Positions 5,779 through 26,639 of a stretch of DNA of 33,126 bases are shown here, in pieces. Each line of letters begins with the position of its first letter. The stretch's first letter is position 1. The position numbers were made by a program, and so were the translations under genes. The notes under the pieces were generated by a model. It was not told where the DNA came from. It saw nothing but the letters and a program-made list of their open reading frames with translations, and made no database searches. This stretch comes from Actinomycetota bacterium (GTDB lineage: Bacteria; Actinomycetota; Acidimicrobiia; IMCC26256; VFJJ01): the NCBI GenBank assembly GCA_009886115.1, contig VFJJ01000160.1:1-33126 (forward strand), read 5' to 3'.

Positions 5779-5779
5779 C

Positions 5780-5832
5780 TCGCTCCTCGGTGCTCGCTCC
5801 TCGGTGCTCGCTCCTGGCTGCTCGGTGCTCGC
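5780..5832. repeat. Degenerate 14-bp tandem repeat (CGCTCCTCGGTGCT) in the divergent intergenic region
   Basis: Two exact copies from 5781 plus degenerate copies. On the minus strand each exact unit contains GAGGAG. Confidence 0.7.
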
Positions 5833-5940
5833 TGTTGTCAGTGTGACCCAGTTGCCCTGAGGCGGGCAGATCCGTAGCTTGACGCCGATGTCGTTGCCGC
5901 GTGTGCCCGTCGAGCTCGTTGTGCCTCCCGGCGTCTCGCT

Positions 5941-7035: not shown

Positions 7036-8454
7036 TCACACCTGCGAACGGGCGCCGGCGACCACGGCCTCACGAACGATGGGGAGGCGCACCCGAACCG
7101 TGGTCGACCCCGGGTGTGAGTCGAACTCGATCACGCCGTCGTGACGTTCGACGATCCGACGCGAGATGTCGAGCCCGAGACCGGTCCCCTTGCCGACGTC
7201 CTTGGTGGTGAAGAACGGCTCGAAGACCCGGTGCAGCACCGCCGGATCGATGCCCGGCCCGCTGTCGGTGAGCTCCACGACGATGTCGGCTCCCCGGCGG
7301 AGCGTTGCGATGCGCAACGTCCCGCGCCCCTCCATCGCATCGACGGCGTTGTCGATCAGGTTCGTCCAGACCTGATTGAGCTCGGCCGCGTACACCTCGA
7401 TCTCGGGGATCTCGGCGTCATAGGCACGAACCACCTCGATGTCTCGCAGCTTGACCGCCAGCATCGTGAGCGTGCTCTCGATGCCCCCGGTCACGTCGAT
7501 CCGATTGAGCGCTGCGCGATCCATCGCGGAGTACGTCTTGACGTCCTCGACGAGGTGCGAGATACGGGCGGTGGCCTCGGCGAGCTCGTCGAGGATCGAC
7601 ATCATCCCGACCGTGCTGGTGATCCAACGCACCGCCGGCGACAGCGCCTCGGAGCCGACGGCGGCTTCGAGCTCCTCCAGCCAGACACGGTCGACACCTG
7701 AGGCGGCGAGAACCGGGGCCAGCCGCCAAGCGATGCCGACGTCGTGGTCCTCGAGCCAGGAGCCGATGGCATCCTCGCGATCGGCGCGCTCGATGGCGCC
7801 GTCATCGGCGTCGGGACGTTGTCGGAGCTCGGCCCGGAAACGGTCGAGCTTCAAGAACTGATCGGCGGCGACCCCCTGTTCGGCGAGGGCGACGAGCGAG
7901 GACATCATGTACTCGCTGGCGTTTCGCAGCCCTTCGACAGCACGCATCGACGCCGCCGCGGGATTGTTGATCTCGTGGGCGAGACCGGCGGCGAGGGTTC
8001 CCAGGGCAACGAGCGACTCGCGCTCGCGGGCATGGGCGTCGATACTGCGAACCGTGTGGAAGACGCCGGTGATCATGTGCATCGCGAACGGCGACCACGA
8101 GCCGACCACCGAGGCGAGCTTGTCGGACGGCACGACCAGGCACCGACCCGGAGTCACGGCGCGCCCAGACGCCCGGTAGACCCCGTCGGCGCCGCCCCAC
8201 GCCGCGAGGCCGCCGGCCCATTGACCCGGTGTCGACATCGTGGCGACGACGTTGCTCCGATTGGCGACCCGACGCGACAACTCGATCTCACCCTCCAGCA
8301 AGATCCACAACTGATCTGCTTGGCGGCCCTCGGTGAACAATTCGTCATCGGGCGCAAAGCGGATCTCGTGCCCGGCATCGATCAGCTCGGCCCGCTGCCC
8401 GTCGTCGAGCTCTGCGGTGAGGAACGCGGCCCGCAGATCGTCGGCGAGGCTCAT
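7036..8454 (-). CDS. Cytoplasmic sensor histidine kinase with N-terminal cyclic-nucleotide-binding-like domain
   Basis: LFTEGRQADQLWILLEGEIEL (cNMP fold), H-box LAHEINNP, N-box QVWTNLIDNAVDA, DSGPG, FEPFFTTK, GKGTGLGL. Confidence 0.93.
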   Translation of the reverse strand: MSLADDLRAAFLTAELDDGQRAELIDAGHEIRFAPDDELFTEGRQADQLWILLEGEIELSRRVANRSNVVATMSTPGQWAGGLAAWGGADGVYRASGRAVTPGRCLVVPSDKLASVVGSWSPFAMHMITGVFHTVRSIDAHARERESLVALGTLAAGLAHEINNPAAASMRAVEGLRNASEYMMSSLVALAEQGVAADQFLKLDRFRAELRQRPDADDGAIERADREDAIGSWLEDHDVGIAWRLAPVLAASGVDRVWLEELEAAVGSEALSPAVRWITSTVGMMSILDELAEATARISHLVEDVKTYSAMDRAALNRIDVTGGIESTLTMLAVKLRDIEVVRAYDAEIPEIEVYAAELNQVWTNLIDNAVDAMEGRGTLRIATLRRGADIVVELTDSGPGIDPAVLHRVFEPFFTTKDVGKGTGLGLDISRRIVERHDGVIEFDSHPGSTTVRVRLPIVREAVVAGARSQV

Positions 8455-10115
8455 ACCGTCTCCAGGTAGAGGTGCACGTTGCTGATCGCGCTCGAGCCTT
8501 CACCGACCGCGGATGCCACTCGTTTCATCGAGGAGCGCCGCACATCGCCGGCCGCGAACACGCCGGGTGCACTCGTCTCCAGGAGGAACGGCGGCCGTCG
8601 CAGCGCCCAGCCGGGGCCGTCGACGCCGCCCAGCGCACCAACGTCGGGACCGGTCAAGATGAACCCGTGCTCATCTCTCGCGACGACGTGAGCGAGCCAG
8701 TCGGTGCGCGGTTTCGCCCCGATGAACGCATACAACCAGTTCGCCGACACGTCCTGCTGCGTCCCGGTGTCGCGCTCGACAAGGGTGAGCCATTCGAGGT
8801 GATCGGAGCCGCCACCCCGGACGATCTCGGTGCGTAGACGTACTTCGATCCTGTCGGAGGCGAGGATCCGATCAACGAGGTACCTCGACATCGAGGCCTC
8901 GAGCGACTCGCCGCGCACCAGCATCACCACGCGGCGTGCGTACTGAGCGAGGTGGAGCGCCGCTTGCCCGGCCGAGTTGGCAGCGCCGACGAGATACACG
9001 TCGTCGCCCTCGGTCGTGCGGGCATCACTCACCGAGGCGCCGTAGTACACGCCTCTCCCCGTGAAGTCGGCGAGCCCTTCAGCGGTCAGCAACTGGTACG
9101 ACACGCCGGTAGCGACGACGACGGCTCGCGACTCGATCTCGGAACCGTCGTCGAAGCTGAGCGCGAAGATCGAACCGCGCAACTCGAGCGACTGCACATT
9201 GCGGGCGAGCACCATCTCGGCTCCGAGCCGGCGCGCCTGTGTCGCCGCTCGATGGGACAGATCGGCGCCGCTGAGGCCGTTCGGGAAGCCGAGGTAGTTC
9301 TCGATCCTCGAGCTCTGGCCTGCCTGTCCCCCCGGCGCATCGCGTTCGATCACGATGGTCCGCAAGCCCTCCGAGGCCGCGTAGACCGCCGCAGCCAGAC
9401 CAGCAGGCCCGGCGCCCACGACCACGACGTCGTACAGCGCTGCTTCTGTGGTGGTGTGGAGTCCCAGCGCGCTCGCGAGCTCGAGCGTGCTCGCGCCGTG
9501 CAGCACCGTGCCGTCCGGCAGGAGCACCAGAGGAAGCCCGCCCTCCGAGGCGCCGAAGAGGCCGTGCAGCCGCTGGGCCTCGGCGTCGGTGTCGAGCTCG
9601 AGCCACTGGTAGTGGACATGGTTGCGGGCGAGGAAGATCCGCGTGTCGTAGCTCCGTTCCGACCACCGGTTCCCGACCACGCGAACGCCTTCGAATCGTT
9701 GGCTGTTGGCACGGTCCCAATCGTCCAACAGATCGTCGAGCACCGGGTACAGACGCTCTTCCGGCGGCGCCCACGGCTTCATCAGATAGTGGTCGAGGCC
9801 GATCTCGTTGATCGCGGTGATCGCCACCTCGGTGTCGGCGTATGCAGTGAGGAGGAGGAGCTTGGCGCCCGGCGCGATCGGTCGAGCCCGTTCGAGGAGC
9901 TCGATCCCGGTCATCTCCGGCATGCGATGATCCGACAGGATCAACGCAACCGGATGATCACGTCGACCGAGCTCCTCCAACGCCGCCAGTGCCTCTGCGC
10001 CCGACGTGGCCCGGATGATCCGGTACCGCTCGGCGTAGCGCGCCCGCAGGTCACGGGCCACCGCCTGCGAGACCGTCACGTCGTCGTCGACAGTCAGAAT
10101 CGCCGGTCTCGCCAC
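8451..10115 (-). CDS. Response-regulator receiver fused to thioredoxin-reductase-like FAD oxidoreductase
   Basis: REC domain ILTVDDD...LILSDHRMPEMTG...LLTAY...KPW, then GAGPAG, GGQAGQSSRIENYLGFP, GAANSAG, PGVFAAGDVR. Overlaps the kinase start (ATGA). Confidence 0.93.
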   Translation of the reverse strand: MARPAILTVDDDVTVSQAVARDLRARYAERYRIIRATSGAEALAALEELGRRDHPVALILSDHRMPEMTGIELLERARPIAPGAKLLLLTAYADTEVAITAINEIGLDHYLMKPWAPPEERLYPVLDDLLDDWDRANSQRFEGVRVVGNRWSERSYDTRIFLARNHVHYQWLELDTDAEAQRLHGLFGASEGGLPLVLLPDGTVLHGASTLELASALGLHTTTEAALYDVVVVGAGPAGLAAAVYAASEGLRTIVIERDAPGGQAGQSSRIENYLGFPNGLSGADLSHRAATQARRLGAEMVLARNVQSLELRGSIFALSFDDGSEIESRAVVVATGVSYQLLTAEGLADFTGRGVYYGASVSDARTTEGDDVYLVGAANSAGQAALHLAQYARRVVMLVRGESLEASMSRYLVDRILASDRIEVRLRTEIVRGGGSDHLEWLTLVERDTGTQQDVSANWLYAFIGAKPRTDWLAHVVARDEHGFILTGPDVGALGGVDGPGWALRRPPFLLETSAPGVFAAGDVRRSSMKRVASAVGEGSSAISNVHLYLETV

Positions 10116-10395: not shown

Positions 10396-11637
10396 ATGGC
10401 CATGATCGAACCGATCGAGGATCTCTCCGACCCCACCTGGGATCCGCATCTCGGCGACGAGTTGTTCTTCGGGACGCTCAGCGATCCGTACCCGATCCTC
10501 GCCCGGCTCCGGGAGAGCGCCGGAGTGGTGCCTGGTGATTTCCGCGACGCCATGGGATTGCCGCCGAGCCCCCCGCAGGCGTACGCCCCGCACTACATGG
10601 TGCTGTCGTTCGCGGCCATCGACCATGTGCTGAGCCATCCCGAGGTGTTCTCGAACAAGGCGTTCGATTCCACGCTCGGGGCCGCGTTCGGCCACACGCT
10701 CAGCGTCATGGACCAGCCCGAGCACACGGGCTACCGCAAGACCCTCCAGCGGGTGTTCCGGCCCAACATCGTCCAGGAGTGGGGTACGGGGATCGTCGAC
10801 CCGGTGATCGACGAGCTCGTCGGTGCTTTCCGCGAGAACGGCAGGGCCGAGCTCGTCGAGCAGTTCTGCCGTCCATACCCGTTCACGGTCATCTACCGGA
10901 TGATCGGCCTCCCGGCTCGCGACATCGCCACCTTCTACCGGTTGACAGTCACCCAGATCCTCTCGCCCGTGCGGATGGACATGGCGCTCGAGGCCTCGGC
11001 CAAGCTCGGCCGGTACTTCACGGCGATGCTCGCCGAGCGGCGCAGGAACCCCGGCACCGACCTCGTGAGCGTCCTCGCCACCGCCGAGACCGACGGTGAA
11101 CGGCTGCCCGACGATGTGGTCATCTCGTTCCTGCGTCAGCTCATCAACGCCGGCGGCGACACGACCTTCCGGACGACGACCATCCTCCTCACCGGCCTGT
11201 TGACCAACCCCGATCAGCTGGAGGCGGTCCGCGCCGACCGCTCGCTCATCGGTCCGGCCATCGAGGAGGCCCTGCGATGGGACGGCCCCGTCGTCGCCAG
11301 CATGCGCGAGACGATCGAGGACACCGTCGTCGAAGGCGTGCCCATCCCCTCGGGGACCTTCATCGACCTCCTCTACGGCGCCGCCAACCACGACCCGGCC
11401 ATGTACGAGCACCCCGAGCGCTTCGACATCTTCCGCGCGAGGCGCCGCCACTTCGGCTTCTCCAGCGGCATCCACAACTGCATCGGCCAGCAGCTCGCCC
11501 GTCTCGAGATGACCCGGGCCGTCAACGCCATCCTCGACCGTCTCCCCAACGTGAGGCTCGACCCCGAAGCCCCGGCCCCCCAACCCCGGGGAGCCATGAT
11601 GCGCACGCCCCCGGCGATCAACGTCGTGTTCGACTGA
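10396..11637 (+). CDS. Cytochrome P450
   Basis: I-helix NAGGDTT, K-helix EEALR, heme motif HFGFSSGIHNCIG. GAAGGA RBS before ATG 10396. Confidence 0.95.
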   Translation: MAMIEPIEDLSDPTWDPHLGDELFFGTLSDPYPILARLRESAGVVPGDFRDAMGLPPSPPQAYAPHYMVLSFAAIDHVLSHPEVFSNKAFDSTLGAAFGHTLSVMDQPEHTGYRKTLQRVFRPNIVQEWGTGIVDPVIDELVGAFRENGRAELVEQFCRPYPFTVIYRMIGLPARDIATFYRLTVTQILSPVRMDMALEASAKLGRYFTAMLAERRRNPGTDLVSVLATAETDGERLPDDVVISFLRQLINAGGDTTFRTTTILLTGLLTNPDQLEAVRADRSLIGPAIEEALRWDGPVVASMRETIEDTVVEGVPIPSGTFIDLLYGAANHDPAMYEHPERFDIFRARRRHFGFSSGIHNCIGQQLARLEMTRAVNAILDRLPNVRLDPEAPAPQPRGAMMRTPPAINVVFD

Positions 11638-11682
11638 GTGACTGAGTGACTGAGTGACTGAGTGACTGAGTGACTGAGTGAC
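11632..11682. repeat. Perfect octamer tandem repeat (GACTGAGT)x6 plus a partial unit
   Basis: Read directly. The first unit contains the P450 last codon and TGA stop. Confidence 0.95.
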
Positions 11683-11720
11683 GGCCCGCCGAGCATGGGC
11701 GACGTCGAATCCGTCACACC

Positions 11721-11726
11721 TACACT
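11721..11726 (+). promoter_or_regulatory. Putative -10 element (TACACT) for a leaderless transcript of the merB-like gene
   Basis: TANNNT hexamer ending 8 nt before ATG 11735, with no clear Shine-Dalgarno sequence. Confidence 0.45.
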
Positions 11727-11734
11727 CGAGCGGC

Positions 11735-12394
11735 ATGGAAGCTGCCGATCTTCAGGTGCGGAACACGACGTATCACGGCTTCGTGGAGCTGGGCCGGGCC
11801 CCTGTCGTGGGCGAGATCGCCGGGCGCCTCCAGATGAGCGTCGCCGAGGTGGGGGCGAGTTGGCAACGACTCCACGGTCTCCATGCACTCGTCCTCGACG
11901 GTGACGGCTCCAGCCTTCGGATGGCCAACCCGTTCTCTGCCGTGCCGACCCGTCACCGAGTTCGCGCCGATGGACGATGGTGGTTCGCCAACTGCGCGTG
12001 GGATGCTTTCGGAATCTGCGCGGCGTTGCACGTCGACGGGCACATCTCGTCGGTCTGCCCGGACTGCAGCGAACCGATCGAGATCGACCTTGTCGCCGAG
12101 CAGCCCAGCGATACCTCGCTGCTGTTCCACAGCATCGTCCCCGCCGCACGGTGGTGGGATGACATCGTGTTCACGTGAGGCTCGATGAACCTCTTCCGGT
12201 CGGAGGAGCACATCGCCCACTGGCTCGACGGCCGTAGTCCTGGCATGACCACCACGGTCGTCACACTCAGCGAGCTCGCGCACGCCTGGTGGGGCAACCG
12301 CCTCGACCCCGCGTGGCAGCCCAGGTCGAAAGCGGCCAACCGCGCGATCCTCGACTCCCTCGGCCTCACCGGGCCGCTCTGGTCGCTCGACTGA
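11735..12394 (+). CDS. MerB (alkylmercury/organomercurial lyase)-like protein, probable selenoprotein (UGA148 = Sec), 219 aa
   Basis: N-terminal helical/HTH-like region, PFSAVPTRHRV, FANCAWDAFG (Cys87/Asp90), CPDC, WWDDIVFT-TGA-GSMNLFRSEEHI. ORFs 11678..12178 and 12185..12394 are in the same frame and separated by one TGA (12176-12178). Confidence 0.8.
12179..12215 (+). promoter_or_regulatory. Putative bacterial SECIS element
   Basis: Upper stem CUCUUCC (12191-12197) / GGAGGAG (12202-12208) with GGUC loop starting 19 nt after the UGA. Lower stem CGAUG (12183-12187) / CAUCG (12211-12215). Confidence 0.7.
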
Positions 12395-25473: not shown

Positions 25474-26639
25474 CGGTCGACCCCCAGCACCATGGTGGCG
25501 TGGGCCCAGGTGTTCTGGACGCCTCCGTTCCCACCGTGACCGCTCACAAGCGCAACCTGCGCATCGGGCACCTGCGTTGCGGCGCTCTCGCGTCGGATCT
25601 GCCGTAGGCCCTCGATCACCGCCGTGAAGCCGGTGGCGTAGAACCCCGATAACTGACCGCCGCCCGTGTTGGTGGGTATCGCACCGTCGAGCCGCAGGGC
25701 ACCCGAAGCGACGAACGGGCCACCGTCGCCCGGTGCACAAAAGCCGAAGGCCTCGAGCTGCATGATCACCGAGATCGTGAATGGGTCGTAGAGCGCGGCG
25801 ACGTCGACGTCACCGAGCGAGATGCCGGCCTGACCAAAGGCCGTGGCCTTGGCTGGTGCGATGTCGTCGTGGAGGTCGTACACGTCTCCGGTCCACCAGT
25901 TGCGCATGTTGTGTCCGGAACCGAAGCCGAGAACCACCGCCGGCGTCGACGCCAGATCGCGAGCACGCTCGACGGAGGTGACGATCACACAGACGCCGCC
26001 GTCAGTGTCGCGGCAACAATCGAGCAAGCGGAGGGGGTCGACCACCATCCGCGAGCTCTGGTGCTCTTCGAGGGTGATCGGTGTGCCGTAGCCGAGCGTG
26101 CCGGGCCGCACCGATGCATGCGCCCGCTGCGCGACGGCGACGGCGCCGAGGTGCTCGGAGGTGGTGCCGTAGCGGTGCATGTGACGACGGGCGTGGAGGG
26201 CGTGGCTCATGCCGGCACCGATGAAGCCGTAGAGACGTGGGTAGCCATAGCTGTACGTGCCGAACGAACCCTTGGTGCCGTCGGCCCGGGCCATGCGCCC
26301 GCCGGTGGGCGCAGCGCCGTAGATGCACGCCACCGTTGCGGCCTGCCCGGTGAGGATCGCACCGATCGCGTTGATGATCGACCAGATCGCGGTCGCGCCA
26401 CCCGATTGCATCGTGTAGGCGAAGCCTGGAGCGAGACCGAGATGGCGAATGTCGTCGAACATCTCGCTCGACGTTCCGATGCAGCCGTCGATGTCGCGAC
26501 GGGAGAGGCCGGCATCCCCGAGCGCGAGCTCGAGCGCCTCACGTCGCAGGTCGCGCGGCGAGCGGCCCAAGTGCGGTCCCTGATCGGTGACGCCGAGGCC
26601 GGCGACGGCGAAGGAGCGACTGATCCCCGTCGTGGGCAC
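25470..26639 (-). CDS. SCP-x / Ltp2-type thiolase-family protein
   Basis: DPLRLLDCCRDTDGG, YDPFT, PTNTGGGQLS. GTG 26639 follows GAGGGAGG. The N-terminal catalytic Cys position reads QSGGAT. Confidence 0.88.
   Translation of the reverse strand: MPTTGISRSFAVAGLGVTDQGPHLGRSPRDLRREALELALGDAGLSRRDIDGCIGTSSEMFDDIRHLGLAPGFAYTMQSGGATAIWSIINAIGAILTGQAATVACIYGAAPTGGRMARADGTKGSFGTYSYGYPRLYGFIGAGMSHALHARRHMHRYGTTSEHLGAVAVAQRAHASVRPGTLGYGTPITLEEHQSSRMVVDPLRLLDCCRDTDGGVCVIVTSVERARDLASTPAVVLGFGSGHNMRNWWTGDVYDLHDDIAPAKATAFGQAGISLGDVDVAALYDPFTISVIMQLEAFGFCAPGDGGPFVASGALRLDGAIPTNTGGGQLSGFYATGFTAVIEGLRQIRRESAATQVPDAQVALVSGHGGNGGVQNTWAHATMVLGVDR

Follow-up and report, generated by a model that had tools for sequence, protein, structure and literature searches.

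In the 33,126-nucleotide stretch of actinomycetote DNA analysed here (the window), a 219-codon gene is, judged by its sequence, a real selenoprotein gene with an architecture like that of the organomercurial lyase MerB and of the MerB-like selenoprotein SaoL, and it stands outside both curated families. Its internal UGA, codon 148, is almost certainly decoded as selenocysteine (Sec) by SelB and tRNA-Sec with the help of a downstream GGUC-loop hairpin. Profile alignment and a structural model show Cys87, Asp90 and the predicted Sec148 in the places of MerB Cys96, Asp99 and Cys159, and by analogy the product may well be a stand-alone Cys/Asp/Sec lyase of soft-metal(loid)–carbon bonds working like MerB. 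The features on which the argument relies are listed below.

11735..12394, plus strand: MerB-fold selenoprotein gene, 219 aa by read-through, final stop included (sequence, Pfam, AlphaFold model)
11735..11926, plus strand: predicted N-terminal winged-helix domain (about residues 1–64), as in MerB (VIA-align)
11993..12004, plus strand: Cys87-Ala-Trp-Asp90, equivalent to MerB Cys96/Asp99 (CALD in MerB; alignment)
12056..12067, plus strand: CPDC, residues 108–111, C108 being equivalent to the structural Cys117 of MerB (alignment)
12176..12178, plus strand: in-frame UGA, codon 148, predicted Sec at the MerB Cys159 position (homologue column, anticodon, hairpin)
12185..12187, plus strand: internal ATG (Met151), where gene callers open a second ORF (Ile in 16 of 112 Sec genes)
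12191..12208, plus strand: putative bSECIS hairpin with a 7-bp stem and the GGUC loop at 12198–12201, 19 nt past the UGA (folding, conservation)
12287..12391, plus strand: C-terminal segment, residues 185–219, with conserved W185, R189 and W216, beyond the part alignable with MerB/MerB2
11632..11682, plus strand: perfect 8-bp tandem repeat, 6.4 copies, overlapping the stop of the P450 gene and ending 52 nt before the gene start

A sequence-only reading of this DNA had joined two ORFs into one frame split by a TGA, with a 219-aa read-through product and the TGA as codon 148, 61 residues after Cys87, and all of this proved correct. The frame starts at ATG 11735, passes through TGA (12176–12178), GGC, TCG and ATG (12185), and closes with the TGA at 12392–12394. 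The start agrees with the gene call on contig VFJJ01000160.1 (P0003), which is 147 aa long, and the majority of homologues likewise begin 147 codons upstream of the TGA; an alternative GTG start at 11678 was rejected on both grounds. Since the ATG after the TGA is replaced by Ile in 16 of the 112 Sec genes, the 3′ portion does not form a gene of its own. The TGA does not stem from misassembly: two runs belonging to separate studies, X2 (record 11685–12212, no other letters) and X5 (11685–12214, two other letters), have contigs that span it with no listed difference at 12176–12178, this bridging evidence consisting of contigs rather than raw reads and the X2 study being perhaps the window's own source. 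The summed contig depth of X5 reaches 294 at 12178–12211, compared with about 20 on the flanks; because the homologues of many organisms have the hairpin sequence in common, this jump suggests many family members within one community. The one RNA run, X9 (share 0.14), gave short or divergent contigs only.

The gene is preceded by a P450 gene and followed by a convergent LLM-class oxidoreductase gene, with acyl-CoA, thiolase and monooxygenase genes in the wider surroundings. No sigma-70 promoter and no terminator were found for it. The 8-bp tandem array upstream is the sole such array in the genome. Further short tandem repeats are present in the window at 2476–2504, 5779–5834 and 26351–26391 (periods 7, 7/14 and 21), and the minus strand at 7036–10115 carries a response-regulator/thioredoxin-reductase-like fusion followed by a cNMP-binding histidine kinase.

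The stop at codon 148 recurs throughout the family. Among 82 close homologous loci, comprising the best 80 of 197 relatives confirmed in a genome scan and two additional relatives, column 148 is TGA in 80 and TAG in two, no second stop occurs in the aligned region, and past the column the reading frame runs on through about 71 further conserved codons. Such a coincidence is far beyond chance, since the stop sits at exactly this column in all 82 loci. Of the top 120 of 6018 protein matches, 116, the window's own gene call included, end directly before column 148 and four continue with Cys. The best 150 cluster representatives at 50% identity divide into 70 that end at column 146/147, 75 that span it and five that do neither. 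At this greater distance the 75 spanning representatives have Cys in 66 cases, Ala in three, Trp in two and another residue in four (some look frameshifted). The Trp at the Sec column of P0139 and P0152 may reflect loss of function, another translation code in the source organism or a non-UGA Sec codon. The sequence-only reading had proposed Cys in homologues and a TGA conserved in independent genomes as supporting signs, and both were found; none of the observations it named as refuting, such as a TGA unique to this assembly, was made.

The machinery for Sec insertion, which the same reading had proposed to look for, is complete in the source genome (95.6% complete). There, selA and selB are adjacent on contig C73, which also carries a tRNA-Sec with anticodon UCA (selC), and selD is on C57, so the case of a genome devoid of the machinery does not arise. 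The formate dehydrogenase-like gene of this genome also contains a TGA in frame, with a hairpin of like form behind it (loop GGUCU). Among 301 genomes of the window's class, 34 matches were found: 27 with one TGA (its position verified for 24 of the 27), six full-length without a stop and one partial. The selA gene is present in 204 of the 301 genomes overall, in 26 of the 27 TGA carriers and in two of the six full-length Cys carriers, counts that overstate independence because the genomes are related. The 27th TGA carrier, in which no selA was found, has a tRNA-Sec gene (selC) near a contig end, and in four of the six carriers of the full-length Cys form neither selA nor tRNA-Sec was found. 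Within the same class, a family whose genomes measure about 1 Mb has selA in 23 of 26 of them (cf. the Actinomarina preprint).

Moreover, the recoded codon and the tRNA change together. A set of 101 Geodermatophilaceae genomes gave 11 matches: eight with TAG, one with TGA and two with Cys. All eight TAG genomes encode an Rfam tRNA-Sec with anticodon CUA (labelled Pyl by ARAGORN, from the anticodon), and the six TGA genomes examined (G000, which is the source genome, G043, G044, G045, G052 and G167) all have tRNA-Sec with UCA; the TGA/TAG contrast within the family rests on the single genome G052 (UCA), itself unpublished. The TAG genomes are kin and probably reflect one anticodon switch. The TAG/CUA pairing supports recoding because the gene followed the switch, as a true stop need not. 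UAG-encoded Sec with tRNA-Sec(CUA) in Geodermatophilaceae has already been published (PMC5330540), and the members found in this family use TAG and tRNA-Sec(CUA) in the same way as the UAG selenoproteins FDH, UGSC and AhpC of that work; the available part of the paper names no MerB-like gene. This co-variation and the hairpin both go beyond the argument of the sequence-only reading.

The hairpin has a folding energy of −9.5 kcal/mol and a loop of 4 nt. It satisfies all four constraints of the bSECIS model described in PMC13188914, namely a loop of 3–9 nt with G in the first two loop positions, a stem of 4–16 bp, a spacing of 16–37 nt and an MFE of at most −7.5. Conservation of the predicted element at synonymous sites is decisive. 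Arg+7 is CGG in 112/112 Sec genes versus 32% of the other Arg codons there, Ser+8 is TCG in 111/111 versus 39% elsewhere in Sec genes, and the GGTC loop occurs in 111 of 112 Sec genes versus none of seven Cys genes. Across the 112 Sec genes, stem pairs vary in a compensatory manner (U-A, U-G, C-G), and four of the seven change on both sides in ten hand-picked rows. In close Cys forms with an identical FRSE peptide the hairpin is weak or lost, at −3.9 and −1.5 versus a median of −8.8, these energies belonging to two distinct sequences; the pattern scan for such forms gave nine loci, of which four are family members (two distinct site sequences) and five are unrelated. Folded alone, the hairpin is no more stable than shuffled sequences (z from −1.04 to +0.02), and it has no match in Rfam. 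As a genome-wide scan for a UGA plus hairpin returned 66 rows, mostly due to chance, a hairpin by itself is not diagnostic.

It is very improbable that the stop is not recoded, that is, that the locus is a nonsense pseudogene, a natural split into a 147-aa protein and a 69-aa protein starting at ATG 12185, or a gene in which UGA is read as Trp. Databases do list a 147-aa protein, an ATG does lie two codons past the TGA, and Trp does occupy the column in 2 of the 75 distant representatives. However, the same stop is found in more than 100 genomes with a conserved downstream frame, and Cys homologues are single ORFs. The Ile substitutions at the downstream ATG count against a split, the identity of the stop switches with the tRNA-Sec anticodon, and the invariant Trp141 is encoded by TGG in 112 of 112 genes. 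Pseudogene, split gene and UGA-as-Trp were rejected on the shared stop, the Ile variants, the anticodon switch and the TGG codon of Trp141. The proposal that UGA 148 encodes Sec is upheld by a conserved stop column, Sec machinery, a hairpin and a codon/anticodon switch that all agree.

The read-through protein is recognised as a MerB homologue across the stop. The Pfam MerB model PF03243 covers residues 67–185, spanning the TGA (E 6.5e-26; 91.2 bits against a cut-off of 27), and profile alignment places C87, D90, C108 and residue 148 at MerB C96, D99, C117 and C159, in accord with the triad assignment made from the sequence alone. C87, W89 and D90 are invariant in the 112 Sec genes, CPDC is not (C108 in 99/112, C111 in 96/112), and Sec is preceded by Thr in 109, Ser in two and Ala in one. 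Asn86, found in 111 of the 112 at the position of MerB Trp95, is one of the family-specific features, along with H132, W141 and the C-terminal W185/R189/W216, and because Trp95 is replaced, the substrate pocket is expected to differ from that of MerB. An AlphaFold2 model (U modelled as C, 58 sequences) has a pLDDT of 96.9, and all 11 Foldseek matches at E ≤ 0.001 are MerB or MerB2, with MerB2 5C17 the best (E 2.8e-10). Alignment of the model to 5C17 by VIA-align gives Z 18.1 and an rmsd of 3.3 Å over 186 residues and stops at model residue 191, while model residues 1–64 match a winged-helix domain (wHTH) of the LexA/MntR type (Z 9.7, rmsd 1.6 Å, 63 aligned). In a quick tree of 103 rows, with the close clade subsampled and SaoL left out, the Sec forms and several Cys sisters make up a group separate from ordinary MerB-like genes, with an SH-aLRT of 81. 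The nesting of three Cys proteins within starred Sec clades suggests Sec-to-Cys reversion.

Like MerB (EC 4.99.1.2; PF03243, NF033555, PRK13239; 3F0O, 3F2G, 1S6L) and MerB2 (5C17), the protein has the MerB fold, at 17–22% identity, and it shares with MerB the combination of wHTH and catalytic domain and the equivalents of Cys96, Asp99 and Cys117, which belong to the canonical MerB signature as given in PMC8261052. Unlike MerB, it has Sec for Cys159, Asn for Trp95, a C-terminal extension and no Cys160, and it is encoded outside mer operons with no link to merA. Its scores are below the curated MerB cut-offs (30.5 versus 200 for NF033555 and 34.5 versus 193 for PRK13239), and no NCBIfam model (June 2026) reaches its cut-off for this protein. 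The best-scoring one is the SaoL model NF040728 (Haft & Gwadz, bioRxiv 10.1101/2022.07.06.499078), with 50.8 bits against a cut-off of 140; six relatives score 39–52 bits, and further members are also far below 140. SaoL, as described there, shares the MerB fold, the Cys/Asp/Sec triad with Sec at the Cys159 position, the shortened database entries and a place outside mer operons. In contrast to the CU motif of SaoL, Sec follows Thr in the family described here and never Cys; 71 residues follow Sec versus about 50 in SaoL; and the nine-gene SAO locus described for SaoL does not surround the gene. The hosts are soil and sediment Actinomycetota and Chloroflexota versus about 52 anaerobes reported for SaoL. 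The earlier caution that SaoL might already cover this gene was apt, given the shared Sec position, yet the score and the TU instead of CU mark a distinct family.

A description of the family was not found in the literature searched, in which subscription journals are partly covered, so that absence from print is unproven. In the available parts of a 2026 inventory of 119 families (PMC13188914) and a 2022 review (PMC9312934), the one MerB-like row is SaoL, with the same accession in both. MerB had no full-text match in deep-Sep (PMC12013277), no text match in the BSepDB paper (PMC13326102; Table S2 outside the scope of the search), and none in the GOS paper with its supplements (PMC2398784) or in the Actinomarina preprint.

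The surroundings of the gene are not conserved. When ORFs of at least 70 aa on both strands were clustered for 80 loci and the window, the largest cluster was represented at 10 loci, with no constant distance or strand. A Pfam scan that took in 14 cluster representatives and 102 of the 106 same-strand ORFs next to the gene found no mer or SAO family; it gave one partial Pyr_redox_2 match, many of the ORFs being spurious, and a divergent merR in a few loci could escape it. The merA gene was detected in 2 of 27 carriers versus 28 of 274 other genomes, with five candidates per genome scored. In the source genome all 63 candidates were scored and none was merA, the best reaching 351.7 bits against a cut-off of 454.45. 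Ordinary MerB-like genes of the same sample do occur within about 4 kb of merA (G005, G009, G031 and G211). A genome-wide search for SaoC, run without a positive control, found none. Among 164 plasmid records there was no close member, all being below 60% identity (best 33%). With neither conserved neighbours nor a merA link, a role in classical mercury resistance is doubtful.

In MerB, according to PMC10114901, R-Hg is held by Cys96 and Cys159, the carbon receives its proton from Asp99, and Hg(II) passes on to MerA; in the same account Cys159 is the protonated residue feeding Asp99. By analogy, the two chalcogen ligands of the stand-alone lyase would capture a soft metal(loid) bearing an organic group, Asp90 would protonate the carbon, and R-H would be released while the metal ion stays bound to the S/Se pair. 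Since selenols are ionised at neutral pH, Sec148 would probably strike first as the nucleophile, with Cys87 or water then supplying the proton. The product would not be coupled to MerA, and the metal would not undergo reduction but be sequestered or passed to a low-molecular thiol. Because such coupling is absent, the substrate is probably a trace organometal(loid) of soil or sediment, and methylmercury may be included. Of the earlier suggestion of an organomercury or organometal lyase, the fold and triad fit, while no mer operon, merA or merA co-occurrence accompanies them. A broader and more tentative proposal is that a widespread family cleaves carbon–metal(loid) bonds independently of MerA, converting methylmercury to Se-bound Hg or acting on a bond to As, Sb, Sn, Te or a halogen.

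The probabilities attached to the functional readings hold on the premise that the protein is made. A selenoprotein of classical organomercury resistance, handing mercury from MerB to MerA, appears improbable. The MerB fold, the triad positions and the name 'organomercurial lyase' in Pfam and source records speak for it, as does the report that genomes commonly have MerB without MerA (PMC8261052), but merA is no more frequent among carriers (2/27) than among others (28/274), none exceeds the cut-off in the source genome, and the ordinary MerB-like genes of the same sample do adjoin merA. Somewhat less improbable, though still unlikely, is a chemistry without metals, in which Sec would abstract an electrophile (a halogen, S or Se group) from carbon, Asp90 would protonate the carbon and Cys87 would resolve the Se–S bond, as in a deiodinase-like or redox cycle. 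This reading is inferred from chemistry and finds some favour in the altered pocket, in the scatter of the genes among catabolic and redox genes with no metal genes, and in sporadic fusions of Cys sisters to metabolic enzymes, which, however, may be gene-calling accidents. Against it, direct evidence and a conserved reductant partner are both lacking, and a sister subfamily with Cys/Cys/Cys and no acid fits metal binding better. Finally, the protein might be a non-catalytic soft-metal scavenger, chaperone or sensor built of a wHTH and a metal site, for which the chances are low. Se–Hg binding is very tight, which would disfavour turnover without MerA, and the wHTH domain is clear. HgSe end-products (PMC10114901) also count for this reading, yet none of the 112 Sec genes lacks Asp90, the same wHTH is present in MerB, the few invariant N-terminal residues are mostly hydrophobic and no target neighbours are conserved. 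The stand-alone soft-metal(loid) lyase is also left with no tie to a metal pathway, as neither mer genes nearby nor a merA link was seen in the loci and genomes examined, and the altered pocket (Asn86 for Trp95) and the nine distant representatives without Cys at the column likewise speak against it; the three-Cys subfamily counts in its favour, being what is expected of a soft-metal site.

The hidden gene is carried by many soil and sediment bacteria. Genes with one TGA occur in 27 of 301 genomes of the window's class, in 17 of 201 of the class of G043 (Gaiellaceae) and in 12 of 251 of the phylum of G045 (Dehalococcoidia), the TGA position being unverified in the latter two sets; carriers thus make up about 9% of the sampled genomes in the two actinobacterial classes and 5% in Chloroflexota. 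By their titles, the best 80 of the 197 relatives belong mostly to Gaiellales/Thermoleophilia, Acidimicrobiia and other Actinomycetota. In a related subfamily, which makes up 25 of 75 full-length representatives (P0151, P0156, P0159 and others), each of the three triad positions is Cys, and the one member scanned reached no curated model. Fusions were seen for Cys sisters among 15 long matches (ketopantoate reductase in three, PhzF-like in one, SDR in one), with no recurrent partner for the Sec clade; in P0123, P0124 and P0126, from three clusters, a Cys-type sister protein stands behind a ketopantoate-reductase domain.

Several other MerB-like genes were noted along the way. L214 (G473:C27, minus strand) has a UGA at both catalytic positions (Sec-x-x-Glu plus Sec, if both are recoded), the second followed by the same GGUC hairpin. 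G832 has two TGA codons in its MerB-like match, at unverified positions, and in G428 a second stop stems from a frameshift. The source genome holds two more, very divergent MerB-fold genes (G000:C23:49337-49705 and G000:C95:95502-95816), with a Cys-x-x-Glu or similar first motif, Cys at the second site and no internal stop; genes like this pair occur in G027 and G009 and form a long branch in the tree.

The finding concerns a large family of selenoproteins whose members are truncated by gene callers at the catalytic residue, as in 116 of the top 120 database matches, among them NCBI records named 'organomercurial lyase'. Sec in place of Cys159 thereby extends beyond the anaerobic SAO system. 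Signature-based merB surveys require Cys159, as stated in PMC8261052, and would therefore drop these genes, while less strict ones treat them as fragments; either way, estimates of demethylation potential in soil and sediment are distorted. The enzyme is small and encoded by a single gene, exists in nature in Sec, Cys and three-Cys versions, and has at least one cultured host (Blastococcus jejuensis JCM 15614, with the TAG form), which makes the role of a MerB without MerA directly testable. In a sample of 401 Actinomycetota genomes, seven unpublished ones included, 69 have a PF03243 match and 31 of these 69 have the single-TGA form. On that basis, if MerA-independent cleavage by this family is true, merB surveys would have overlooked or misinterpreted an enzyme that ranks among the most common with a MerB fold in these phyla.
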